Virus record (IMG/VR): IMGVR_UViG_2734482781_000007
Location: 1 to 24,254 of that record
DNA length: 24,254 bases
Origin: a virus
Taxonomy: Duplodnaviria; Heunggongvirae; Uroviricota; Caudoviricetes
Strand: one strand, 5' to 3'
Both the position numbers and the translations under genes were made by a program. Below are positions 4,196 to 14,691 of this stretch, in pieces; position 1 is the stretch's first letter, and every line of letters begins with the position of its first letter. The notes beneath the pieces were generated by a model, which did no database searches, had not been told where the DNA came from, and saw only the letters and a list, made by a program, of their open reading frames with translations.

Positions 4196-4399
4196 ATGAA
4201 CAAAAAGACCTGGTTTCGCGCATACATGTGGGCGCTGGTATGCGTCCTCGTTTCTCTCATTCTGTATGCAGGACTACTCCCCCGAATGATTTCATCAGAC
4301 AGCTCCTTCCTGGTATTGCTGGGCATTTTCATTGCCATGCTGTACCCGGCAGGCGTTGTTCGCCTTTTCAGTAAGTACATCAAGGAAATCAAACAATGA
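4196..4399 (+). CDS. Small inner-membrane protein (two predicted TM helices), partner of the SPFH gene
   Basis: 67-aa ORF with hydrophobic stretches WALVCVLVSLILYAGLL and FLVLLGIFIAMLYPAGVV; stop overlaps the SPFH start (ATGA at 4396-4399). Confidence 0.5.
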   Translation: MNKKTWFRAYMWALVCVLVSLILYAGLLPRMISSDSSFLVLLGIFIAMLYPAGVVRLFSKYIKEIKQ

Positions 4400-5226
4400 A
4401 GAAACTCAAACTCTTTCAGATTATCCCGCTTTTTGCCGCCATCCTGCTGGTTGGTTGCGATCGCGTTGAGCCAGGTAATGTGGGCATCAAAGTCAACAAA
4501 CTGGGCGACGACAAAGGCGTCGGCGAAGTGGTTGGCGTTGGCCGCTACTGGACTGGCTGGAATACCGAGGTTTACATCTTCCCGACCTTCAAACAAATGA
4601 AGACCTACGATGAGCCGTTCAGCTTCCAGATGAGTGACGGCACAACCATCGGCTATCACATCGGTGTGGCCTACAAGGTTGATCCATCCAAAGTTACTAC
4701 AGTGTTTCAGACCTACCGCAAAGGCGTGGATGACATTACCGACACTGACCTGCGCCAGAAGATCGCCGATGCACTCAACCGACTGGCCAGCAAAATGACC
4801 ACCGACAAATTTATCGACGGCGGGAAATCTGAACTACTGGATGCAGCCCTTAAAGACATTCAGGAGGAAATGACACCCATCGGTATTCAGGTAATGAGCC
4901 TCTCATATGTGGGTAAGCCGGAGTACCCGTCAACCGTTATCGACAGCATTAATGCCAAAGTCACGGCAAACCAGAAAACCCTGCAACGCGAACAGGAAGT
5001 CAAGCAACGCGAAGCAGAAGCCAACATGTTGCGCGCAGAAGCTGCCGGACAGGCTGATGCCATTCGCACAAAAGCCCAGGCTGAAGCCGACGCCATTCGT
5101 TTACGCGGTGAAGCTCTGCGCCAGAATCCCGGCGTTATGGAGCTGGAAGCAATCAACAAATGGAACGGCACGCTGCCGCAATACATGACCAGCAACACCG
5201 CTGTTCCGTTTGTTCCGGTGAAGTAA
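4396..5226 (+). CDS. SPFH/band-7 (stomatin/flotillin/HflK-C-like) lipoprotein
   Basis: 276-aa ORF; signal peptide with lipobox LLVGC; SPFH-type core; C-terminal Ala/Glu/Gln-rich coiled coil (QREQEVKQREAEANMLRAEAAGQADAIRTKAQAEADAIRLRGEALRQ). Confidence 0.75.
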   Translation: MKKLKLFQIIPLFAAILLVGCDRVEPGNVGIKVNKLGDDKGVGEVVGVGRYWTGWNTEVYIFPTFKQMKTYDEPFSFQMSDGTTIGYHIGVAYKVDPSKVTTVFQTYRKGVDDITDTDLRQKIADALNRLASKMTTDKFIDGGKSELLDAALKDIQEEMTPIGIQVMSLSYVGKPEYPSTVIDSINAKVTANQKTLQREQEVKQREAEANMLRAEAAGQADAIRTKAQAEADAIRLRGEALRQNPGVMELEAINKWNGTLPQYMTSNTAVPFVPVK

Positions 5227-5257: not shown

Positions 5258-5394
5258 AGCAGTATCAGGATTTTTTTAGTATGCCGTTCTCACAAAAAAA
5301 CCGCTTGCCATGCCGCAATCAGTCAGGTTACATTTCCGTTGCATCTCATAAAACGGGTGCCGGGTTTCGCAGCCTGCTGATCAACAAAGCGCAC

Positions 5395-5415
5395 AACCGC
5401 GCCAGCGGTTTTTTT
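5395..5415 (+). terminator. Rho-independent terminator-like hairpin (AACCGC-GCCA-GCGGTT followed by TTTTT)
   Basis: 6-bp stem, 4-nt loop, immediate T-run, in the roughly 370-bp non-coding gap after the SPFH cassette. Confidence 0.5.
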
Positions 5416-5597
5416 GTGCGTACCGCATTGCCGCACATTTTTTCGCATCAGAATTATGGTGGGGCGTACGGGGCCGACTTCGGTCGGGCCGGGTTTTCTT
5501 TGTTGACCGGTACTGCGAACCTCGTACGTCTCGCCACCCACAGTTTCGCAGCTCTGGATGGTGAGTATTCAAAACTTACCAACAAAGAGGCCACACC

Positions 5598-5828
5598 ATG
5601 GCAAACCGCAAACAGCACCGCACTATCGCGGAGCGTCGTCACATCCAGACTGAAATCGATCGCAGACTCACCCGCGCTGCACACATCGCCTTTATCATGC
5701 AATCCAACACATTGCACAGACTCAACAACACTATTTCAGCCGACTACTGCGCCGCTGTATTCAGCTATCTGGCGGAAGACCTCCTGTCTCTTCAGGATCT
5801 CATCCAGCAGCAAAACAAACTCCATTAA
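5598..5828 (+). CDS. Hypothetical early protein
   Basis: 76-aa ORF with AAAGAGG SD upstream of the ATG; basic N-terminus (MANRKQHRTIAERRHIQTEIDRRLTR). Confidence 0.5.
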   Translation: MANRKQHRTIAERRHIQTEIDRRLTRAAHIAFIMQSNTLHRLNNTISADYCAAVFSYLAEDLLSLQDLIQQQNKLH

Positions 5829-5900
5829 TTCCTGTTCCGGGCCTTTCCTGCACCTTGCGGCGGGAGGCCTTCGCACATCTGTAACAAGAGGATTGCCGCA

Positions 5901-6266
5901 ATGATTCTCGCCAACGACTTTCTTGAATACCTGCTCAACACAGAGCGTGATCTTGCCGTTCGCGTGCGTGACCGTTATGACATGTACCTGAAATCCCTGC
6001 CTGTACCGCAGCTCGCTGACGGAAAAATTGTTATTGATGGCCGCTACATGATTGACAGCCACGAGGGAAATTACAGGCTTTACCGCATTGAAGGCGGCAC
6101 CCCGTCCGTTATTGGCATTTACCAGCGCCCATCCTCTGCGATCGTCGATGTGATTGCAGACAGCATCCGCATCACACATCACTATGCCGACACAGAAGAC
6201 ACCGTGCTGGAAATTCAGCGGCTGGCTACCGTCTGCCGCGACACCCTGAATGGCATGACGAAGTAA
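5901..6266 (+). CDS. Hypothetical early protein immediately upstream of A
   Basis: 121-aa ORF with AGAGGA SD-like sequence upstream; directly followed by the A gene. Confidence 0.5.
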   Translation: MILANDFLEYLLNTERDLAVRVRDRYDMYLKSLPVPQLADGKIVIDGRYMIDSHEGNYRLYRIEGGTPSVIGIYQRPSSAIVDVIADSIRITHHYADTEDTVLEIQRLATVCRDTLNGMTK

Positions 6267-6272
6267 ATCACT

Positions 6273-9095
6273 ATGACGGCAGAGCACATCAGGGACTGGC
6301 AACAACCGCGCCACGCAGTAGGGCGGGAAGGAACGGGGATCCCCGCACCTGAATCCGCGCTTTCTTCCTGGCTGGATGCCTACCGGGCAGAGAACGAGCA
6401 CCGCCAGGAAAAGGCTGATGCGGCGTTCTCCGCCACGCCACTGGGCAATCTGATTAATAAAAGCCTGGACGCACAGGAAAAACAGGACAAAACCATCACG
6501 CTGGCAGGAGACGCCAGAAGACAGGCACGCGGCGCGGTGGATGAAGCCATGGCCTCGCTGCGCCTGCTGCCGTCCTATCTGCGCGATCCGCTTATTCGCC
6601 ACCTCTCCTTCCTGCGCAAAAAACAGGAAGCCGATCGCCGGAAAGGAAAAAAGAACTGGCAGGCTGAACGTTACGCGCACGGAACCCTGCGCAAAATATT
6701 CGAACGTCTGGACTGCACCGACCGTCGCTGGCTGACTCCGGGTTATCGCTCCCTTGCCGGACGTGAACGCCTGGACGATTTGCTGTACCTGCCACAGCTC
6801 AACAAGCACCAGATACAGACGCTGGCCACCATGACGGCGGCGATGTTCAGCAGCACCTTCGAAAAGCTCTGCGATGGCTTTGGCGCGACCGATGGCGAGC
6901 TGACTATGGATATAACGCTGAAGGTGTATCAGATGCTGGCCCGCATGGCGTTACACCTGCACGCCATGCCTCCACATTATGACGCACTGACAACAGACAA
7001 AGACCGGAGGAACGAACCGGACACGGAGCTGCTGCCGGGCGCAATCCTTCGCCTGACCTGTGCGGAATGGTGGAAACGCAAACTGTGGCTGTTACGTTGC
7101 GAGTGGAGAGAAGAACAACTCCGCGCCGCCTGTCTGGTTTCCAGAAAAACATCACCCTATCTGAGCCAGGACGCGTTAAGCGAGTTTCGCGCACAGCGCG
7201 AGAAAACACGCGATTTCCTGAAAAGTTTCATGCTGGAAAATGAAGACGGGTTCACGATTGATCTCGAGACAGTGTATTACGCGGGAGTAAGTAACCCGGT
7301 TCACCGTAAGGCAGAAATGATGGCCACCATGAAGGGGTTGGAACTTCTGGCCGAAGCCCGTGGCGACAAAGCGGTGTTTCTGACTGTCACCTGCCCGTCA
7401 AAATACCACGCCACAACGGAGAACGGTCATCCGAATCCCAAATGGAACGGGGCCACAATGCGCGACTCCAGCGATTACCTGGTTAACACGTTTTTTGCGG
7501 CGGTCCGCAAAAAACTGAACCGCGACGGCCTGCGCTGGTATGGCATCCGCACGGTGGAGCCTCATCATGACGGCACCGTGCACTGGCATATGATGGTCTT
7601 TGCACATCCGGAAGAAATCGACACCATTGTGTCCCATACCCGCGATATTGCCATTCAGGAAGACCGCCACGAGCTGGGCAATGATATTACTCCGCGCTTT
7701 AAGGTGGAGTATGTCGACGGCTCAAAAGGCACGCCAACCAGCTACATCGCCACCTACATCGGAAAGAACCTGGACAGCCGCGCCGTGGATGGCATCGACC
7801 CGAAAACGGGCAAGCCACGCGTGGACCACGAAACCGGAAAATCAATGGCCGAGAGCGTGGAGCGCGCCATCGGCTGGGCGCGCCTTCACCGGGTCCGTCA
7901 GTTCCAGTTCTTTGGCATCCCCTCCCGTCAGGTGTGGCGTGAACTGCGCCGCCTTGCCAGCCAGATGGCACGCAATCCGGAAGGCCCGCAACGGCTGAAA
8001 GATGATGCAATGGATGCGGTACTCGCTGCCGCCGATGCCGGGTGTTTTGCCACCTACATTAAAAAACAGGGTGGCGTGCTTGTTCCACGCAAGGACTACC
8101 TGATTCGCACCGCCTACGACCTCGCAGATGAGCTGAACGATTACGGCGAACAGAGCGTACAGATTTACGGGATCTGGTCACCACTCATCGGGGAATCCTC
8201 CCGTGTGTGCACGCATCCGGATAACTGGAAGCTGGTAAGACGTAAACCGGAAGCGGAAGACAGCGCCCGCGAAAATGGTTTTGACCTTCAGGGCGGCCCT
8301 GCCGACCCTTGGACTCGTGGCAATAACTGTCCCCGTGTACAGGAAACAGACAACAACGGGACAGAACAGCCGGAAGAACGGCCAGCACTGTGGCCGCAGC
8401 TTCCTGACGGCGTTGATGTGGATGAATGGATGCGCTCACTGAAACGGCACGAACGCCGGGCGCTGATGCGTTCGCTTCGTGACAAACAGGCAAAAAACAG
8501 CAGTGATGAAATGCAGAGCTGGACACAGAGCCGCAAACAGCAGCGGCCTTTGCCTGATAACCACGAATTACTCGCTAAAGAATGGCGGGAGTCTGCTGAA
8601 TCTCTCGGCCTGCATATCGGTGAACAACAGATGCAGCACCTGTTACGGGGCGGCAGTCTGTACGTTGACGGCAGCATCATTGCACCGCAGGGATTTGAAA
8701 TTGTACGCAAACCGGATACCCGCCCGGACAGCCGAATCACGCAGCTCTGGCAGCGCCTGAGCCGTAATCACGGCGTAAGCAGCACGGAGATCCGCCATAA
8801 CCCGGTCTCCAGCTATCTGGCACAGCTCGGGGCATCAGACCCCGAAGCCGCCGCACGCCTGGCATCCACACTTCAGCAGGTCCAGAACACCATGAAAACA
8901 CCCGTTACCGTGCTTTCTGACATGCTGCGCGCCATTCGTGACGCGGAGCACGCACAGAGAATCAGAGAAACCACTGAACGCGCCCGCCGCAAAGCAAACC
9001 TGCTGAGGGCTGGCCTGACCAGTGGAAACAAAAAACAGACAGAAACGGGATTCACAAATCCCGTAAATGAGCAAAAAACGCGCCGCGATATATGA
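6273..9095 (+). CDS. A: Replication initiation endonuclease gpA (HUH rolling-circle initiator) with long C-terminal extension
   Basis: 940-aa ORF; HUH-like motif HWHMMVF and tyrosine pair in SYIATYIGKNLD, typical of P2 gpA/phiX174 A-type relaxases; last early gene before the accessory locus. Confidence 0.85.
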   Translation: MTAEHIRDWQQPRHAVGREGTGIPAPESALSSWLDAYRAENEHRQEKADAAFSATPLGNLINKSLDAQEKQDKTITLAGDARRQARGAVDEAMASLRLLPSYLRDPLIRHLSFLRKKQEADRRKGKKNWQAERYAHGTLRKIFERLDCTDRRWLTPGYRSLAGRERLDDLLYLPQLNKHQIQTLATMTAAMFSSTFEKLCDGFGATDGELTMDITLKVYQMLARMALHLHAMPPHYDALTTDKDRRNEPDTELLPGAILRLTCAEWWKRKLWLLRCEWREEQLRAACLVSRKTSPYLSQDALSEFRAQREKTRDFLKSFMLENEDGFTIDLETVYYAGVSNPVHRKAEMMATMKGLELLAEARGDKAVFLTVTCPSKYHATTENGHPNPKWNGATMRDSSDYLVNTFFAAVRKKLNRDGLRWYGIRTVEPHHDGTVHWHMMVFAHPEEIDTIVSHTRDIAIQEDRHELGNDITPRFKVEYVDGSKGTPTSYIATYIGKNLDSRAVDGIDPKTGKPRVDHETGKSMAESVERAIGWARLHRVRQFQFFGIPSRQVWRELRRLASQMARNPEGPQRLKDDAMDAVLAAADAGCFATYIKKQGGVLVPRKDYLIRTAYDLADELNDYGEQSVQIYGIWSPLIGESSRVCTHPDNWKLVRRKPEAEDSARENGFDLQGGPADPWTRGNNCPRVQETDNNGTEQPEERPALWPQLPDGVDVDEWMRSLKRHERRALMRSLRDKQAKNSSDEMQSWTQSRKQQRPLPDNHELLAKEWRESAESLGLHIGEQQMQHLLRGGSLYVDGSIIAPQGFEIVRKPDTRPDSRITQLWQRLSRNHGVSSTEIRHNPVSSYLAQLGASDPEAAARLASTLQQVQNTMKTPVTVLSDMLRAIRDAEHAQRIRETTERARRKANLLRAGLTSGNKKQTETGFTNPVNEQKTRRDI

Positions 9096-9136
9096 AGCGC
9101 GCACAAAACAGGCGAAAGCGGGATTTAAAAATCCCG
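9046..9136. repeat. Two copies of a palindrome-containing 22-bp repeat (CGGGATT-N4-AATCCCG followed by TAAA), 73 bp apart, upstream of parM
   Basis: Copy 1 at 9046-9063 (inside the 3' end of A), copy 2 at 9119-9136 (36 bp before the parM ATG); a GC-rich element GCGCGC..GCGCGC lies between. Confidence 0.6.
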
Positions 9137-9171
9137 TAAACGGTTAATTAACCAACATAAGGAAAATCGAC

Positions 9172-10131
9172 ATGAAAATTTGTATCGACGACGGCTCCAC
9201 CAACATCAAGCTGGCATGGACTGAGAATGGCGAACGCCGCAACGCCATCAGCCCGAACAGCTTCAAGTCGGAATGGTCTGCGCCGTTCGGTGGCATGCAA
9301 CCCGCGAACTACATGCTTGATGGCGTGCGCTATGGTTTTGATCCGGTCAGCGATCGCTTTGTCCAGACGACCGACACGCAATACCAGTACAGCGATGTGA
9401 ATGTAATCGCCATTCATCACGCGCTGGTCAAATCAGGCATCACGCCACAGGAGGTGGATGTGGTTGTCACCCTGCCACTGAGCGAGTATTTCGACACAAA
9501 CGCACAGCCGGACATGGCCAACATCAACCGCAAAAAAGCGAACGTTATGCGCCCGGTGGAGTACCAGAACGGTGAGGCATTCACTATCCGTAACGTGCGG
9601 GTTATGCCTGAATCCATTCCGGCAGGCTTTAAGGCACTGGCTGACATGAGTCCGTTTGAATCCCTGCTGATTGTGGATTTGGGCGGAACCACGCTGGATG
9701 TGGCAAAGGTTCAGGGGCAACTGGCAGGCATCAGCCAGGTATTTTGCGATCCACACGTAGGCGTTTCACTGATGACCGATGCCGTGCTGTCGGTGATGGC
9801 CACCAACGGTATGCGTACCAGCCACCACATCGCCAATACCATTATCGAACATCGCCACGATGAAGCCTGGCTGCGCCAGCACATCCACAATGACGCGCAT
9901 TACGCCAGCCTGGTGGCGGTTATTCGTGAAAAGGAAGAAACACTGAAACAACGCGTGATCCGCGCGCTGGCGGTTTTTTCGGGTTACGGGCGGGTGATGG
10001 TTGTCGGTGGAGGGGCGGAGATTGTGGCACCCGCTATCCGCGAAGCCTGCGGAGTTAATGCGACTTTCATCGCGGACGGGGTGCCACAGTTTGCTCTGGT
10101 TAATGGGCTGTACGCAATGGACAAGGAGTAA
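9172..10131 (+). CDS. parM: ParM/StbA-family actin-like segregation ATPase
   Basis: 319-aa ORF; N-terminus MKICIDDGSTNIKLAW closely parallels plasmid R1 ParM (MLVFIDDGSTNIKLQW as recalled); actin-fold motifs VDLGGTTLDVA and VVGGGAEIV; AAGGA SD 8 nt upstream. Confidence 0.8.
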   Translation: MKICIDDGSTNIKLAWTENGERRNAISPNSFKSEWSAPFGGMQPANYMLDGVRYGFDPVSDRFVQTTDTQYQYSDVNVIAIHHALVKSGITPQEVDVVVTLPLSEYFDTNAQPDMANINRKKANVMRPVEYQNGEAFTIRNVRVMPESIPAGFKALADMSPFESLLIVDLGGTTLDVAKVQGQLAGISQVFCDPHVGVSLMTDAVLSVMATNGMRTSHHIANTIIEHRHDEAWLRQHIHNDAHYASLVAVIREKEETLKQRVIRALAVFSGYGRVMVVGGGAEIVAPAIREACGVNATFIADGVPQFALVNGLYAMDKE

Positions 10132-10135
10132 ACCA

Positions 10136-10447
10136 ATGACGACACCAACCAGACGGATAAGTTTCTATCTGAAGCCCGCCGCCGTCAAGAACGAAGGCGA
10201 AGCATGCGCCTGGCTGGACAGCCTTACACCAGAAGCCCGCAAAAGCGGCCAACGCGTGGCTTTTCTGGCCGGGCTGGCACTTCTGAAAATGAATCCAGCA
10301 GAGGCTTACCGACTGGCTGCATGGGCTGATGATGAAGCGTTATCAGTGACACAAACCAGGACAGAACGCCCCGCATCACAGCCAGTATCAACCGCACAGA
10401 TAACCAGCCAGATGGCCGGAAATATCCGGGCGTTATTTCCCGAATAA
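10136..10447 (+). CDS. parR: ParR-like centromere-binding protein (ribbon-helix-helix type)
   Basis: 103-aa ORF from ATG 10136 (AAGGAG SD; the longer ORF-track reading from 10001 overlaps parM); RRISFYLKPAAV...LDSL...AFLAGLALL parallels R1 ParR as recalled; gene order parM-parR as in R1. Confidence 0.65.
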   Translation: MTTPTRRISFYLKPAAVKNEGEACAWLDSLTPEARKSGQRVAFLAGLALLKMNPAEAYRLAAWADDEALSVTQTRTERPASQPVSTAQITSQMAGNIRALFPE

Positions 10448-10452
10448 CACAA

Positions 10453-10476
10453 CATCAGGGCGAGTTCGCCCTGATG
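10453..10476. terminator. Perfect 10-bp-stem hairpin between convergent parR and the minus-strand cargo gene
   Basis: CATCAGGGCG-AGTT-CGCCCTGATG at 10453-10476; a U-rich tract follows only on the minus-strand transcript side. Confidence 0.5.
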
Positions 10477-10492
10477 CACAAAACATGCAAAA

Positions 10493-11089
10493 TCAGAATT
10501 TAGTATGCAATTTATCTACCAATCGCTTAGCCTCATTAAGCAGTTTTTGGTATTCCCTGCTATCGTTTTCCTGATCTTCATACGCTCGCCGAACACGCCA
10601 TCGAAGAGCAAGGCATTTTAAGTTCCGGTAAAACCTCGGATTACGCTTGCGGCACTCTTCCATATAAGGTTCAAAATGGACATCAAGAAAGATTAAGGTA
10701 GAACCATAAACACGATATAGATACCGCTCATCATACAAACCGTTATTCACGGCATTGGCACAACGCTCCCATTCATTAAAGATGAGCTTTAACGCTTTTG
10801 AACCATCTGTTTGAGAATATTCTTCTTTTCCCCAGTCTGCGATTGGGAAATTGTAGCGGTCCTTGTAGATACGCAGCACTTCAGACCACGCCTCAACTAT
10901 GTCTTTATTGCGTTTGTATGCCGCCTCAAAGTCCAACGAGTTTTTTTCGCGCGACGTCTTTCTTTGATTTCGTATACTAATCACTGCAATAAGCGCCCCT
11001 GCCACCCCCGGGTAGAAGGTAGGGCTGGAGTTCCAGATGTCTGAAAGAAACTTCCATCCACCACAAAGAATAGAAAGCACTAGATCCAT
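10493..11089 (-). CDS. Membrane-anchored hypothetical protein, AT-rich hotspot cargo (candidate phage-defence or exclusion protein)
   Basis: ORF 10493-11098; most likely start is ATG at 11089 (198 aa) because the ORF-track start is TTG. N-terminal hydrophobic segment (DLVLSILCGG...PGVAGALIAVISI), then a roughly 150-aa charged soluble domain with no recognised motif. Base composition visibly more AT-rich than flanking prophage DNA. Confidence 0.6.
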   Translation of the reverse strand: MDLVLSILCGGWKFLSDIWNSSPTFYPGVAGALIAVISIRNQRKTSREKNSLDFEAAYKRNKDIVEAWSEVLRIYKDRYNFPIADWGKEEYSQTDGSKALKLIFNEWERCANAVNNGLYDERYLYRVYGSTLIFLDVHFEPYMEECRKRNPRFYRNLKCLALRWRVRRAYEDQENDSREYQKLLNEAKRLVDKLHTKF

Positions 11090-11098
11090 TATTTTCAA

Positions 11099-11128
11099 CC
11101 ATAAAAAATGGGAGCCAAAGCCCCCATT
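11099..11128 (-). terminator. Intrinsic-terminator-like hairpin plus U-tract on the minus strand, about 10 nt upstream of the cargo gene start
   Basis: Minus-strand RNA AAUGGGGGC-UUUG-GCUCCCAUU followed by UUUUUAU (9-bp stem with one G-U pair). Confidence 0.45.
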
Positions 11129-11157
11129 CTACTGAAACTACTCTAAAAAAACAGGAG

Positions 11158-11202
11158 TTAAACGTCCCAGTTTTCTTCGCTATAGGTGCAGCGTACGGTC
11201 AT
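11158..11202 (-). other. Mini-ORF (14 codons, MTVRCTYSEENWDV) with GGAGA SD, upstream of the hairpin: possible leader peptide
   Basis: Minus-strand ATG at 11202, TAA at 11158-11160; sits 5' of the terminator-like hairpin and the cargo gene. Confidence 0.25.
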
Positions 11203-11443
11203 AGTTAGTCTCCTTTTTTCAATCATTTAAACATCACTAATTTACTTTTAACATGGAGATGGTTTTACAGTTGTCAACCACCTCCCCCAAATCTGTTGGG
11301 GTAAGCTATCACGCCTACCATACACATACAATGATGAGGCTATATCGTGTAGGCACACTGACAAGGATAAGTTCATCTTCTTCGCTGTCTTAATGTGACC
11401 AAATATAGCACATTTGAAGCGATATACATCCTGTAATGATACT

Positions 11444-11469
11444 GCACAATAGTGCACAAATTTGCACAA
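11444..11469. repeat. Three direct GCACAA repeats at exact 10-bp phasing in an AT-rich stretch
   Basis: GCACAA at 11444, 11454 and 11464, followed by a T7 run. Confidence 0.6.
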
Positions 11470-11494
11470 TTTTTTTGAACGACTTTTTGCCCTT

Positions 11495-11535
11495 CCGGCC
11501 CGCGTGGCGGCTGGATCCGTCAAGGATCCGTGCGT
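11495..11535. other. Candidate cos region (uncertain)
   Basis: GCGTGGCGG at 11501-11509 resembles the start of the 19-nt cohesive end of P2/186-type phages as recalled; tandem GGATCCGT repeats at 11513 and 11526; location between accessory locus and Q fits the P2 map. Exact cos not established. Confidence 0.25.
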
Positions 11536-11842
11536 GCACAAAAAAACGCGCTTTTTCTGCGCGCAGGTGACGGGGGAACAGCCCGCGTTTCAGGGGGTAA
11601 ATAGCATTCCCTGAACGATGTCGCAGAGATACAACAGAATGGCTGTATTTCTCACGCTGAGTGTGAAAAAGACGTGAGGGCTTTTGATTTGATGGGGTGA
11701 AAGGTAAGGCCGTCAAAATCGCACTGAGACGGCGAGAACATGCAGTCAACGCGGTGGGATTGCGTAAGAGTCTGACTGTCGATGATGGCAATCAGCAGGA
11801 AAGCATCGTGAAATTATCTGACTGATACAGGAGCTGGAGAGT

Positions 11843-11867
11843 CGGGGCATAAATTTTTTATGCCCCG
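11843..11867. repeat. Perfect inverted repeat with 11-bp arms (CGGGGCATAAA-TTT-TTTATGCCCCG) 27 bp downstream of Q
   Basis: Read directly from the sequence; no flanking U-tract on either strand. Confidence 0.6.
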
Positions 11868-11893
11868 GCGAAGCAGCAGACAAGCGAAGCGCG

Positions 11894-12940
11894 TCAGGAT
11901 GTGGGCTGGGTGTCTAACAGTGCGTAAGGGTTAAAGCGGATCACCTCTTCGCCAAGCCAGTCATTGATGTGCTTCATAGCCTCCATGACGGGCATCAGCT
12001 CGTTAATTGCGTAAACCCGCGCGGCCTTCTCCACATCACCAAACGCACTTTTTTCGCCCGGCATCGCCCCCATCAGTTGCGGCGGAACACGGTGCGCAGC
12101 CAGCACATCATCACGGGATGCCGCCTTAACATTCATGAACTCATCCTTTGCGGTGATCTGCTGGAACGGCAAAATTTGCACCCCCTCTTTGCCCCCGTTG
12201 GGCGCATGGATGAGCACGTTTTTAAACGCGCCACCACCACGTGCACCCTGTAGCGTTTCTTTCAGGGAGTCCATGCTTTCGCGGTTTACCTGCGCTGCAC
12301 CGATGTAGATGATGCACCCGGCGTGGGATCCATTGTCGTAATACAGTTTTCTGAACATGTCCGCCGAATGAGACAGGCTGGCCGAGAGTAATGCGCCAAG
12401 ATATTCCGGCATGCCGTAAATTTCCTGGTTAATATCCGGATTCATCAGGTGGCACACTTTGCCAGGGCGAAACTGGAACGCGTCCTTGCCATCCTGCACA
12501 TACCACCATGATTCAAGATCGCTTCCGCGTCGCATGTATTTCGCCAGTGCGTGCCGTAATTTAAGCGGTTCGCCGAGTATATTGCTTCTAAGCTCAAGGA
12601 ATGCGTTACCGAACACAAACCAGTCCAGCGCCAGCGCCGAGAAATCCTGCCGGGAAAGCAGCGGGTGCGGGATGTAGCAACCGAGTAATACATTGCGCTT
12701 AAAGTAAAGCGCAGACTGATGCCAGGACGTTTGCCGGGCTGCTCTTGCCAGACCGTACCAGTCCACCGGGGTTTCATACCACCGCCCGTTATCAGCACAG
12801 TACATATTGTCCAGCAGGTCATGCCCGGTCAGGCGATAAGGACCATCAAATGTGAATGCACTGAGCGATGATTCTTTCCTGAGCGCATCAGCGAGATCAA
12901 TGCGTGAACTCATGCGCACTTTTTTATTTTTTCTGCTCAT
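11894..12940 (-). CDS. Q: Portal protein gpQ
   Basis: 348-aa ORF, leftward, overlapping the P stop by one base; size and sequence consistent with P2 Q; first gene next to the cos region as in P2. Confidence 0.85.
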   Translation of the reverse strand: MSRKNKKVRMSSRIDLADALRKESSLSAFTFDGPYRLTGHDLLDNMYCADNGRWYETPVDWYGLARAARQTSWHQSALYFKRNVLLGCYIPHPLLSRQDFSALALDWFVFGNAFLELRSNILGEPLKLRHALAKYMRRGSDLESWWYVQDGKDAFQFRPGKVCHLMNPDINQEIYGMPEYLGALLSASLSHSADMFRKLYYDNGSHAGCIIYIGAAQVNRESMDSLKETLQGARGGGAFKNVLIHAPNGGKEGVQILPFQQITAKDEFMNVKAASRDDVLAAHRVPPQLMGAMPGEKSAFGDVEKAARVYAINELMPVMEAMKHINDWLGEEVIRFNPYALLDTQPTS

Positions 12941-14691
12941 CAGAACTCCATAACCGTGAAACGCTCGTTTTCTCCTTCGCCGCCAATCGGTTCGTTAATG
13001 ACAGCAAGCATGGTTGCCCACGCAAGGTCGCCGTGGCTGATCCCCCTCGCGCGGTCCGTTTCGTAAGTGATAAAGCCGCCCGGTGTTTTCACCTTACGCA
13101 CGGCGTTAAAGGCCGCGACCAGCTCGCGTTCGGCGCGATCGTATTCCCACCGTCCGGCACGCATTATTTGCAGCATTTTCAGTACCAGCGACCGTTTGGA
13201 TGACAGCGTGAAGGTGTACGGAATAGCAGCAGGGAAAAACCGCTTCACTATCTGATAAACAGCCTCCCCGTTCCCGCCCGTCACATCAATGCCGATGTGT
13301 TCCACGTTGTAGCGACGCGTGAACTCTTCAATGACTCTGGCCTGTTCTTCAAACTCCAGCCCCTGAACGCGTCGTGTCTCCACCGTTCGAAAACGGCCAC
13401 CAGGAACAGCCGGAGGAACCACCACGGACACAGCGCCGCTGTCGCCGTTGCCACTGCTGCCGTTTGCGTCATACCCAATCCATACCGGACGATTCCCCAT
13501 CGGGCGGGGAGCAAAAGGTTTCCAGTCTTTCCAGTCGTCGTATCCGTCAACACCGCAGCCAATCAGGATATTCAGGTTAAACGCCGATTCCCCTTCGCGA
13601 ACAAACTCACACATATAGAGATTGAGGAACTCGTCTTCGGTGTTTTCATCACGAATTTCATCAATATCGGTGTGTTTCCAGCCGTGATTAACCACATCTT
13701 CCAGCGTGACAATTTGCCGCCACGTCCGGTCAGGGCAGATAAGCCCGTTATGCAGCGTTTTCCAGTCCACAGAAAAACGCTGGCGTTTATGCGTGGCCTT
13801 TTTCTCGTTCCAGCGGTCGCCGTTCCAGTAGGCGTATGCCTCGTGCGTTTCGGTGGATGGCGTGGAGAAGTAGGTGCGCCGCAGTCCGCTGAGGGTTGCC
13901 ATAGCGCCAGCCACCTTGCGCAGTTCAGCAAAGCGACTGACCCAGAAGAATTCATCAAAATAAAAATTGCCCGTATAGGACTGTGCCGACGCAGCAGAAG
14001 TGCCGAGAAAATGCAGCTCTGCGCCGTTGGAGAGGATGATTTTATCGCCCCCTTTCAGCTCCACATCAACTTCAGCCGCGGCCTTCTGAATAATGCTTTT
14101 AAACTGGAACGCCTGACGACGCGACGCAGACAAAAAAATCTGGTTACGCTGGTAAGGTTGCGCCACATCGTCACGCAGCGCCATCAGCAGAGCTTCCTGT
14201 GCAAAATACCAGGTCGCCCCAATCTGTCGGGATTTCAGGATCATCCTGTTACGTATCCCTGCTTCCCTGCAAAGGGTCAGGGAGTCAAACCAGCCCCGCT
14301 GATGCCACTCCAGCCTGCTGATGATTTTTTCCCGCAGTGCGGCAATCTGTTCCGGCGTGAAATGATTTTTGAGTTTTTTCGCCCGGCCTTTCTTTCCTGC
14401 GGCCATCACATCCTGCTGGCCATCATGCAGCTTTTTAAGCTGCCGGGTCAGCAGGTCTATTTCCTTAAAGTCACCGCCTGTTTTATTCTGTTTTTCAGTA
14501 AGCTGGATGAGGCGCGCATCGATGGACTGCGTGACACGCTGCACGGGTGGCGTTTCATCCCACTGGTCACGTTTTTTCCACGCATAAATCGTGTTCGGGT
14601 TTATTCCCATCAGACGTGATATTTCTGCGGGCGGATAACCCTGCCAGTAAAGTTGCCGCGCACGCTGGCGCACAAAAGCGTCCTGAATCAT
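12940..14691 (-). CDS. P: Terminase large (ATPase) subunit gpP
   Basis: 583-aa ORF with N-terminal HTH-like segment (MIQDAFVRQRARQLYWQGYPPAEISRLMGINPNTIYAWKKRDQWDE); size, strand and position upstream of the portal match P2 P; GGGGGAG SD. Confidence 0.85.
   Translation of the reverse strand: MIQDAFVRQRARQLYWQGYPPAEISRLMGINPNTIYAWKKRDQWDETPPVQRVTQSIDARLIQLTEKQNKTGGDFKEIDLLTRQLKKLHDGQQDVMAAGKKGRAKKLKNHFTPEQIAALREKIISRLEWHQRGWFDSLTLCREAGIRNRMILKSRQIGATWYFAQEALLMALRDDVAQPYQRNQIFLSASRRQAFQFKSIIQKAAAEVDVELKGGDKIILSNGAELHFLGTSAASAQSYTGNFYFDEFFWVSRFAELRKVAGAMATLSGLRRTYFSTPSTETHEAYAYWNGDRWNEKKATHKRQRFSVDWKTLHNGLICPDRTWRQIVTLEDVVNHGWKHTDIDEIRDENTEDEFLNLYMCEFVREGESAFNLNILIGCGVDGYDDWKDWKPFAPRPMGNRPVWIGYDANGSSGNGDSGAVSVVVPPAVPGGRFRTVETRRVQGLEFEEQARVIEEFTRRYNVEHIGIDVTGGNGEAVYQIVKRFFPAAIPYTFTLSSKRSLVLKMLQIMRAGRWEYDRAERELVAAFNAVRKVKTPGGFITYETDRARGISHGDLAWATMLAVINEPIGGEGENERFTVMEF

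Follow-up and report, generated by a model that had tools for sequence, protein, structure and literature searches.

A plasmid-type ParM/ParR cassette in the backbone of P88-like prophages and its possible action on circular phage DNA

P88-like prophages of E. coli carry a pair of partition genes, parM and parR, directly after their replication gene A. Judged by homology and by its pattern of conservation, this cassette is a real, intact and selected plasmid-type ParM/ParR pair. We lean towards the view that it is a working type II (ParMRC-like) module of the P88-like backbone, which acts on the circular extrachromosomal phage genome and not on the integrated prophage. By analogy with characterised systems, it would most likely serve to move circular phage DNA, or to segregate it, during the time in which the early operon is active.

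A partition pair behind gene A

The whole stretch of DNA that we analysed (the window) is 24,254 nucleotides long. The cassette lies in a P88-like peduovirus (Xuanwuvirus), and the genes around it are those expected of a P2-like prophage, with integrase, C repressor and Cox first and the portal, terminase and capsid genes later. The genes that matter for the argument are the following:

1-1032: integrase
6273..9095, plus strand: gene A, P2-type rolling-circle replication endonuclease, 940 aa (PF05840 Phage_GPA, 9.2e-131; phrog_91, 'nicking at origin of replication')
9172..10131, plus strand: parM, actin-like segregation ATPase, 319 aa, with an ATG start and an AAGGA ribosome-binding site
10136..10447, plus strand: parR, predicted centromere-binding adaptor, 103 aa (PF10784)

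Both partition genes follow gene A directly and share its orientation, with a spacer of 76 bp between A and parM. The original prediction had described a ParM-family ATPase and a ParR-like protein, in the order parM-parR, after gene A of a P2-like prophage. Gene content and domain matches bear this out in full.

ParM matches both ParM domains of Pfam (StbA_N at 2.7e-82, the ParM C-terminal domain at 6.8e-69). ParM of plasmid R1 (1mwk) is matched across residues 2-316 (E = 1.1e-93), with an identity of about 50% over the full length, and the IDDGST, PES, DLGGTTLD and GGGA motifs of the two proteins align residue by residue; D169 is the counterpart of the catalytic D170 in R1 ParM. A non-ParM actin fold, the outcome named beforehand as fatal to the prediction, does not apply to a protein of such similarity. 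By these matches ParM is an intact actin-fold ATPase of the ParM/StbA family.

ParR matches PF10784 (Plasmid_stab_B) at 1.6e-24. Searching the PDB with the single ParR sequence gives no match; a profile built from prophage ParRs alone matches ParR of plasmid pB171 (2JD3) in a PDB profile search (E = 4.8e-12). The gene starts at ATG 10136, 4 nt past the parM stop, with AAGGAG 7 nt upstream. A mechanically called open reading frame from TTG 10001 is over-extended.

Two segments of ParR are conserved. The first is the N-terminal TRRISFYLKP segment, a putative ribbon-helix-helix strand, and the second is the NIxxLFP tail with which the protein ends. The N-terminal strand and the tail are common to ParR of an IncI plasmid and to pB171 ParR, which likewise ends in LF. 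Overall, prophage ParR is 16% identical to IncI ParR, the only plasmid ParR that was aligned. The linker in between is hypervariable (about residues 63-90). This pattern fits an N-terminal ribbon-helix-helix, a flexible linker and a ParM-binding tail. The AlphaFold monomer model is poor (pLDDT 55), with a disordered stretch at residues 63-85 and a C-terminal helix at 86-100. Hence, the ribbon-helix-helix fold rests on sequence homology only.

Both genes are maintained. The parM reading frame is intact in 85 of 85 copies and parR in 83 of 85, one copy being truncated at 79 aa. The ratio dN/dS is 0.064 for parM, 0.17 for the N-domain of ParR and 0.78 for its linker; these copies, like those behind the cargo statistics below, come from a scan of IMG/VR and are 98-99% identical, too close for deep comparison. 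Among more distant prophage ParMs, which share only 54-62% identity, the motifs for nucleotide binding and hydrolysis are invariant.

A survey of P2-like prophages finds the cassette in 1303 of 5426 complete E. coli genomes (24%) and in other genera. In the E. coli genomes there are 1443 parM places, 1441 of them chromosomal (99.9%). In E. coli about 93% of the P88-type A genes come with the cassette (1443 versus 1544 places), and parMR is a near-core module of the P88-like/Xuanwuvirus lineage. The order A-parM-parR recurs in P2-like prophages of Hafnia, Plesiomonas, Serratia and Enterobacter, a synteny across at least five genera, and the cassette co-diverges with the phage backbone across genera.

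A contig search with the single ParM gave three near-identical loci; the divergent relatives came from searching proteins and looking up their contigs. All ParM relatives tested in the range of 54-63% identity share one location, behind gene A of a P2-like prophage (sources are Hafnia, Plesiomonas, Serratia, Enterobacter and one metagenome). Relatives at 52% identity or below are on plasmids. In a neighbour-joining tree the prophage ParMs stand apart from the plasmid ParMs, which are the closest relatives outside phages.

To call the cassette unexpected in such a phage, as was done at the outset, is an overstatement given its frequency in the lineage and in E. coli. RefSeq and PHROGs already carry it under the annotation ParM, and the module received a passing remark in print, for roughly one in four P2-like prophages of E. 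coli, from Rousset et al. 2022 (PMC9122126). That P2-like prophages have the cassette is already public knowledge. A literature search found no published experiment on the P88-like parMR cassette.

Could the pair be a decaying relic of a plasmid or phage-plasmid ancestor, with no current function? The plasmid ParMs are its nearest kin outside phages, parM is fragmented in one isolate (phage 503458), and one parR of 85 is truncated. The selection data already contradict this part of the original prediction: the reading frames are intact under strong purifying selection, the catalytic motifs do not vary, and the synteny and the near-constant company of P88-type A genes are not those of a decaying locus. 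We see next to no chance that the cassette is such a relic.

A candidate centromere around the end of gene A

Two conserved palindromes, 16-20 bp long, lie just upstream of parM. Each is part of a longer repeat unit:

9029..9067, no strand assigned: repeat unit 1, direct and inverted repeat, 39 nt, holding palindrome 1, ACGGGATTCACAAATCCCGT, at 9045-9064
9102..9140, no strand assigned: repeat unit 2, 39 nt, 82% identical to unit 1, holding palindrome 2, GCGGGATTTAAAAATCCCGT, at 9118-9137

Palindrome 1 is inside the 3' end of gene A, within its last 50 bp. Palindrome 2 is in the spacer between A and parM, 73 bp from palindrome 1 and 52 bp before the parM ATG. Exact CGGGATT-N4-AATCCCG sites occur only at these two places in the window. 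A palindrome site is found at the same position in nearly all P88-like loci, with arms that vary somewhat between alleles.

In three lineages whose flanks can no longer be aligned there are two palindromes, spaced 72-73 bp apart and 52-59 bp before parM; the prophages of Plesiomonas and Hafnia have this two-site layout. In the Hafnia prophage an extra open reading frame intervenes between A and parM, and the palindromes stay with parM, not with A. They are absent from a P2-like phage without parMR, whose A is 52% identical.

From this conservation and placement, the two palindromes are likely a centromere, the candidate site for ParR. Their number counts against this reading. The centromere of plasmid R1 has ten iterons, and two sites make a very small centromere in comparison.

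Alternatively, ParR might mainly be a transcriptional regulator that stops read-through of the early operon into the cargo genes, or the palindromes might be part of an A-dependent origin. ParR of R1 represses its own operon, and plasmid ParRs also act as repressors. One palindrome is within gene A and the other just before parM, and palindrome 1 is terminator-like on the minus strand. However, such a function leaves a conserved, catalytically intact ParM under strong selection unexplained, and it does not agree with the Hafnia arrangement or with the phage that has a related A and neither parMR nor palindromes. We set aside an identity of the palindromes as origin or terminator elements, since their position goes with parM and not with A, and no T-run is present on the plus strand. 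A mainly regulatory or origin function is quite unlikely.

Expression of the cassette and state of the phage

We propose that parM and parR are the last two genes of the early (Cox ... A) operon and are read by co-transcription with A. Being read within the early operon, they would be made only after infection or induction, alongside A. In neither the window nor four divergent prophages does a crude consensus scan find a sigma-70-like promoter ahead of parM, and the same scan finds TTCAGA-16-TATAAT (10/12 match) before one plasmid parM; a weak or activator-dependent promoter could escape a test of this kind. Promoter-like matches at the Serratia and Enterobacter loci overlap the start codon of parM and thus cannot drive it. 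Going by these sequences, parMR is probably silent in lysogens.

The conserved module ends just 3' of parR at a hairpin:

10452..10477, no strand assigned: hairpin with a perfect 11-bp stem, inverted repeat, terminator-like site on the minus strand

This hairpin is the probable terminator of the convergent DUF4760 gene and possibly that of the early operon too. Beyond it related prophages diverge into variable cargo. Homology breakpoints in most loci fall at query positions 1453-1486, and the cargo after the cassette comes in at least 21 different arrangements in 55 loci.

The P2 defence hotspot lies between A and Q (PMC9122126). The cassette sits at the edge of this hotspot, with the many cargo arrangements right behind it. 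It could be accessory defence or exclusion cargo, in which ParR or ParM interferes with incoming plasmids or phages, a role that the original prediction had also offered. We find no support for it. With E values up to 1 admitted, neither ParM nor ParR matches any PADLOC family. The cassette forms the conserved left border of the hotspot and is not one of its variable members, homology breaks only past the parR hairpin, and the pair diverges together with the phage backbone across genera. It is also probably silent in lysogens. Cross-binding of ParR to plasmid centromeres is unlikely because of the low identity to IncI ParR. Altogether a defence role is very improbable.

A facultative plasmid lifestyle is another explanation, suggested in passing by Rousset et al. 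2022 (PMC9122126). In this scenario the prophage persists as a low-copy phage-plasmid, for example in hosts without a free attachment site. PLSDB lists one complete P88-like phage among its plasmids (NZ_CP148288.1, 34,461 bp, circular), the Plesiomonas element is on a phage-sized 32-kb contig that ends beside int, and the prophage ParM is 48% identical to that of phage-plasmid D6.

However, the phage of NZ_CP148288.1 is integrated in another strain at 100% identity, and the circular record has its cut precisely at the att boundary, which is what an assembler would give on resolving an excised form. A query for episomal forms through the attP junction meets the same cut in this record, and integrase types differ among the prophages. 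Integrase, C repressor and Cox are all kept. Moreover, A is needed for replication and sits in the lytic operon, and we found no promoter from which parMR could be read during repression of the early operon. With 1441 of 1443 copies in the chromosome and no promoter of its own found for the cassette, the data argue against plasmid-state lysogeny. A facultative plasmid lifestyle is unlikely.

Proposed mechanism and comparison with known systems

Our preferred reading, a module that acts on the extrachromosomal phage circle, implies the following sequence of events. ParR dimers would bind both palindromes, which are in phase and lie on either side of the end of A (9045-9064, 9118-9137). The conserved C-terminal tail of ParR would capture the ends of ATP-dependent filaments, which ParM is predicted to form. 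As they grow, the filaments would push sister phage circles apart. The likely payoff would be the spacing or positioning of monomeric circles that arise from A-dependent replication, similar to what AlpAC does for prophage CGP3. Alternatively, or in addition, as long as the phage is episomal in a cell that still divides, both daughters could retain a copy, as with SrpMRC and excised SXT/R391. One argument counts against the proposed role: a cell that is bound to lyse has no obvious need for segregation to daughter cells. Of the roles first put forward, stabilising an excised or replicating episome and positioning phage DNA are the live options.

The closest counterparts are the ParMR systems of plasmids: ParMRC of R1 (StbA/StbB/parC), pB171 and the IncF/IncI plasmids. 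They have the same gene order as the prophage cassette. R1 ParM carries the same ATPase motifs at about half identical residues, ParR of pB171 is homologous and of the same Pfam family, and both kinds of locus have repeats just upstream of parM. The hosts differ, an autonomous low-copy plasmid for the R1 type and an integrating phage for the cassette. So does the upstream DNA. Before parM of a plasmid relative there are about 400 bp of AT-rich DNA with multiple repeats and a clear promoter, whereas the prophage cassette has 76 bp with two palindromes, one of them within coding sequence, and no detected promoter of its own. Type II systems have their own promoter in parC, autoregulated by ParR; by our crude scan, the prophage cassette departs from them in this respect.

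SrpMRC of the SXT/R391 elements is likewise a type II-like partition module on a normally chromosomal element. It is expressed only upon induction, from an induction-dependent promoter, and stabilises the excised, replicating ICE, and its centromere consists of four 13-bp repeats (Carraro et al. 2015, PMC4489591). The same paper describes SrpM as a merely distant relative of R1 ParM and recognises no ParR domain in SrpR; in contrast, both proteins of the prophage cassette are clear members of the ParM and ParR families. The host of SrpMRC is a conjugative element and not a phage, and SrpMRC was tested experimentally.

Prophage CGP3 of Corynebacterium glutamicum requires AlpAC for efficient replication, and AlpC/AlpA/alpS are induced early after excision and tie circular phage DNA to filaments (Donovan et al. 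2015, PMC4446434). As in our cassette, an actin-like ATPase and a DNA-binding adaptor, co-transcribed in AlpAC, are encoded by an integrated prophage. The AlpAC-like trait that we see in the cassette is its position at the end of the early operon, beside the replication gene. AlpAC belongs to another host phylum and another phage type and has experimental support; its gene order is alpA-alpC going by the operon name, and we compare it as a functional analogue.

The P1-like phage D6 is also a temperate E. coli phage with an StbA-type ParM. D6-type phages lysogenise as plasmids and need partition. P88-like phages carry an integrase and att and are almost always chromosomal, and so they do not belong with the phage-plasmids of the P1/D6/N15 type, whose prophages are extrachromosomal and mostly lack an integration module.

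A more far-reaching claim can be made, which we put forward as tentative and rather doubtful. An integrating temperate coliphage lineage of about 35 kb may rely on an actin spindle of plasmid origin as a standard component of its programme of infection or induction. ParMR would be driven by the early operon and would act on a minimal centromere of two palindromes that overlaps the replication gene. It would be required for the efficient replication or packaging of monomeric circles, or would sustain a short-lived carrier state in which cells divide before integration or lysis follows.

Roughly one sequenced E. coli strain in four has the cassette, and the strength of selection on it is what would be expected for an essential phage gene. 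If an integrating phage needs an actin-like segregation machine, the precedents of AlpAC and SrpMRC would extend to the classic P2 family. The need could be for replication, for the packaging of circles or for a short plasmid-like phase. The compact two-site candidate centromere could serve synthetic biology as a minimal ParMRC part. If our proposal is true, P88-like phages would provide an easy E. coli model for phage DNA positioning, and a quarter of E. coli strains would harbour a phage cytoskeleton function.

The ParM/ParR pair and its place in the prophage

Gene content and domain matches identify the window as part of a P2-type prophage, in which capsid and tail genes are present alongside the features listed here.

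Features of the prophage (coordinates, strand, description)
1-1032, minus, integrase
1063-1362, minus, C-type repressor
1471-1896, plus, Cox, first gene of a long early block
6273-9095, plus, replication endonuclease A, last gene of the early block (PF05840, 9e-131)
9172-10131, plus, ParM, 319 aa, directly 3' of A (Pfam domains)
10136-10447, plus, ParR, 103 aa (PF10784)
10452-10477, perfect hairpin just after parR
10493-11098, minus, DUF4760 cargo protein, 201 aa (PF15956, 3.7e-24)
11448-11473, AT-rich palindrome
11546-11564, terminator-like site
11843-11867, perfect 11-bp hairpin
11894-12940, minus, portal
12940-14691, minus, terminase

The 319-aa protein carries both Pfam ParM domains end to end (StbA_N, 2.7e-82; ParM C-terminal, 6.8e-69). 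It aligns with R1 ParM (PDB 1mwk) over residues 2-316 (E = 1.1e-93), and in this alignment the phosphate-1 (IDDGSTNIK), PESIPAG, phosphate-2 (DLGGTTLD) and GGGAE motifs are conserved. The 103-aa protein scores 1.6e-24 against PF10784 (Plasmid_stab_B, the StbB/ParR family). A profile built exclusively from five prophage ParRs finds pB171 ParR (2JD3, "StbB protein") over nearly its full length (E = 4.8e-12). Hence, the original prediction of a ParM and a ParR-like protein after A is correct. Its alternative, a different actin-fold family, was looked for in domain searches: sugar-kinase and Hsp70-like matches to the 319-aa protein were absent or negligible.

The most likely start of parR is the ATG at 10136, 4 nt past the parM stop and preceded by AAGGAG, which yields 103 aa. 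A longer, TTG-initiated ORF from a mechanical list overlaps parM and is not needed.

The product of gene A has 940 aa, with the GPA domain restricted to residues 179-503. The sole match of its C-terminal ~440 aa is phrog_6857, a PHROG of unknown function. In related prophages the A products range from 785 to 917 aa.

The early region has further features of its own. Midway, a gene for a 276-aa SPFH/Band-7 protein (4396-5226, plus; PF01145, 1.8e-30; phrog_200, "lipoprotein") is an unusual passenger for a replication and regulation block. Rfam places an isrK Hfq-binding RNA at 5341-5415 (66 bits) and a C4 antisense RNA at 5452-5541 (78 bits), both overlapping the 5' part of a 207-aa regulator-like ORF (5281-5904). 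A promoter-like site lies upstream of them (5305-5334) and is followed by terminator-like hairpins at 5395-5410 and 5479-5493. The stretch 5305-5541 looks like a P1-type immI/antirepressor control module in a P2-type phage.

Spread, relatives and selection

The cassette DNA is 94-97% identical to that of P88, P884B11 (genus Xuanwuvirus), phiSM from Citrobacter rodentium, 520873, Chuche and others. P88-like phage records already label it ParM or partition protein, and PHROGs places both proteins in "partition protein" families. The authors of the phiSM paper counted the gene as a "fitness" factor (PMC6456863), and Rousset et al. (2022; PMC9122126) mentioned the cassette in passing. Thus its presence is already public: the family is known, and the setting, though unusual, has been reported before. 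We found no functional study of it in the literature.

A search of 5426 complete E. coli genomes located parM at 1443 places (1303 genomes) and the P88-type A gene at 1544; the cassette therefore accompanies about 93% of P88-type A genes. The chromosome of E. coli RM8082 carries the window at 100% identity. Among 382 deposited GPA-type phage records, only 14, all P88-like, have a ParM of this kind; P2, 186-type, PSP3, HP1 and Klebsiella P2-like records lack it.

Two records stand apart. A 226-kb contig labelled Vagococcus sp. WN89Y (L003, NZ_JBQPOM010000071.1) bears this enterobacterial prophage cassette with a ParM 97% identical; its label probably reflects contamination or a mislabelled assembly. 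The parM of Escherichia phage 503458 (NC_049341.1 / CP025874.1) aligns in four pieces, with several annotated "partition protein" fragments, and is apparently disrupted. The A gene of this phage is just 74% identical to the one in the window.

A protein search with ParM returned a tight cluster at 92-99% identity and, after a gap, relatives at 54-63%. All five of these that were looked up (Hafnia, Plesiomonas, Serratia, a metagenome and Enterobacter) occupy the same slot: gene A, ParM, a PF10784 gene, cargo, then portal and terminase. Both relatives looked up at 52% are on plasmids, beside Rep3, ParA or Tra genes, and PLSDB holds thousands of plasmids with ParMs at ~52% identity. Prophage ParMs fall apart from plasmid ParMs in a neighbour-joining tree drawn without bootstrap. 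From these comparisons we infer that the cassette is an old companion of P2-type phages.

The comparison took in 85 loci, of which 80 are IMG/VR contigs; the window and other fetched loci make up the rest. parM is intact at 319 codons in every one, and parR in 83 (one is cut by a contig end, one truncated at 79 aa). Pairwise Nei-Gojobori dN/dS is 0.064 for parM, 0.17 for ParR residues 1-62 and 0.78 for the ParR linker (63-90). The intact, constrained parM contradicts the suggested remnant of phage-plasmid ancestry. Judged by sequence, the cassette is not a relic, and we regard the loss of all current function as hardly credible.

ParR alleles are mosaic. Their first 17-18 residues (MTTPTRRISFYLKPAAV) and last residues (NI[RQ]xxFPE) are common, and the rest is only ~56% identical. 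The helical domain forms at least two families at this identity, next to a hypervariable linker (window 10136-10447; related loci L011 and L013-L092). Since ParM is 98-99% identical throughout the same loci, the mosaic suggests recombination within parR. Such conservation would be expected of a ParR, in which a strand that reads DNA is followed by a helical dimerisation domain, a disordered spacer and a short tail that binds the motor. An IncI plasmid ParR and pB171 ParR have the N-terminal strand of the prophage proteins too, and likewise end in LF or MF. A low-confidence AlphaFold monomer (pLDDT 55; helices 20-61, disorder 63-85, helix 86-100) agrees with this architecture only in outline.

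Expression and a candidate centromere

A consensus scan found no promoter-like site between 8700 and 11950. In four divergent prophages it found no promoter able to drive parM; two matches overlap the start codon. In contrast, on a plasmid parM the same scan found TTCAGA-16-TATAAT ~70 nt upstream, in a leader of 400 bp that is rich in repeats. From cox to parR all genes share one orientation, and the plus strand has no T-tailed terminator between A and parM. Thus the cassette is most simply read as the tail of the early operon. On that reading, a lysogen would not express parMR, and infection or induction would switch it on along with A.

Just one strong repeat is present near the cassette: two direct copies of 39 nt (9029-9067 and 9102-9140) that are 82% identical. 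Each copy holds an 18-20 bp palindrome, ACGGGATTCACAAATCCCGT and GCGGGATTTAAAAATCCCGT, the two being 73 bp, or about seven helical turns, apart. Palindrome 1 falls in the final codons of A; palindrome 2 is in the 76-bp spacer, 52 bp upstream of the parM ATG. The window has no other exact match to CGGGATT-N4-AATCCCG. In a set of 51 distinct upstream sequences, the outer GGGAT/ATCCC arms are largely, though not invariably, preserved, and variation is concentrated in the central spacer (TTTAAAAA versus TTTCAGAA). Most P88-like loci match the looser pattern GGGAY-N6-RTCCC at these two positions, with hardly any matches elsewhere in the locus. Some related loci have a third site ~2.5 kb downstream of palindrome 2 (L002, 8444-8459; L014, L051 and L082, 6444-6459), where it belongs to the cargo of a single variant; this site may be fortuitous or a further ParR site.

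The pairing recurs in distant prophages. In Plesiomonas two GCGGGACAAC...CCC sites are 72 bp apart, and in Hafnia two GGGATT/GGGTT...CCC sites are 73 bp apart. Site 2 precedes parM by 55-59 bp in both, even though the flanking sequences cannot be aligned. Hafnia has a 167-aa ORF between A and parM, and there the sites remain with parM. In the Serratia and Enterobacter group, a single long inverted repeat with GGGAAC ends takes the place of the pair. A Klebsiella P2-like phage without parMR (A 52% identical) has no such palindromic sites. On this evidence, we take the palindromes as likely ParR sites. It is distinctly unlikely that ParR and the palindromes act chiefly in regulation or as an origin. 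Two sites (four half-sites) are few compared with R1; the experimentally tested srpC of SXT/R391 has just four 13-bp repeats. A compact centromere at the cassette is plausible.

Possible uses to an integrating phage

Homology among P88-like genomes stops just after parR, at or within the hairpin at 10452-10477. From there to the portal, 55 loci show at least 21 different cargo arrangements; Rousset et al. (PMC9122126) describe this interval as the A-Q defence hotspot. The window's cargo is the minus-strand DUF4760 gene, whose product has no PADLOC match. Between it and the portal, ~800 bp (11100-11893) contain no convincing ORF. By analogy with P2, this is presumably where the cos packaging site lies. 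A defence role for parMR itself is very improbable: the pair forms the conserved left border of the hotspot rather than a variable member, and has no PADLOC match.

The published guess is that the partition pair maintains the prophage in plasmid form during lysogeny (PMC9122126). In its favour, PLSDB files a complete P88-like phage of 34,461 bp as a "plasmid" (L001, NZ_CP148288.1, 1-34461), with integrase, Cox, A, parMR and structural genes. However, this record is linearised exactly at the attachment-site boundary and an identical phage is integrated in strain Z1323HEC0067 of the same project, as from an excised form in a mixed culture. Moreover, 1441 of the 1443 parM copies in complete E. 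coli genomes are chromosomal, and the scan found no promoter upstream of parM. These data speak against plasmid-state lysogeny, which we consider improbable; a short episomal phase may be compatible with them.

P2-type phages replicate by A-dependent rolling-circle synthesis. Its products are monomeric double-stranded circles, and the same circles serve as the substrate for packaging. We propose that ParR on the two in-phase palindromes would link these circles to ParM filaments, which would part sister circles whenever the early operon is on. The mechanism is plausible because there are experimental precedents. In prophage CGP3, the early-induced AlpC and AlpA attach circular phage DNA to actin-like filaments, and efficient replication requires them (PMC4446434). 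In SXT/R391, SrpMRC is produced solely upon induction, and it makes loss of the excised, replicating element less frequent (PMC4489591). Overall we lean, by a modest degree, towards a functional segrosome.

In sum, the ParM/ParR pair of this P88-like integrating phage is genuine, intact and under selection. The testable question is of what use such a pair is to a phage that integrates.
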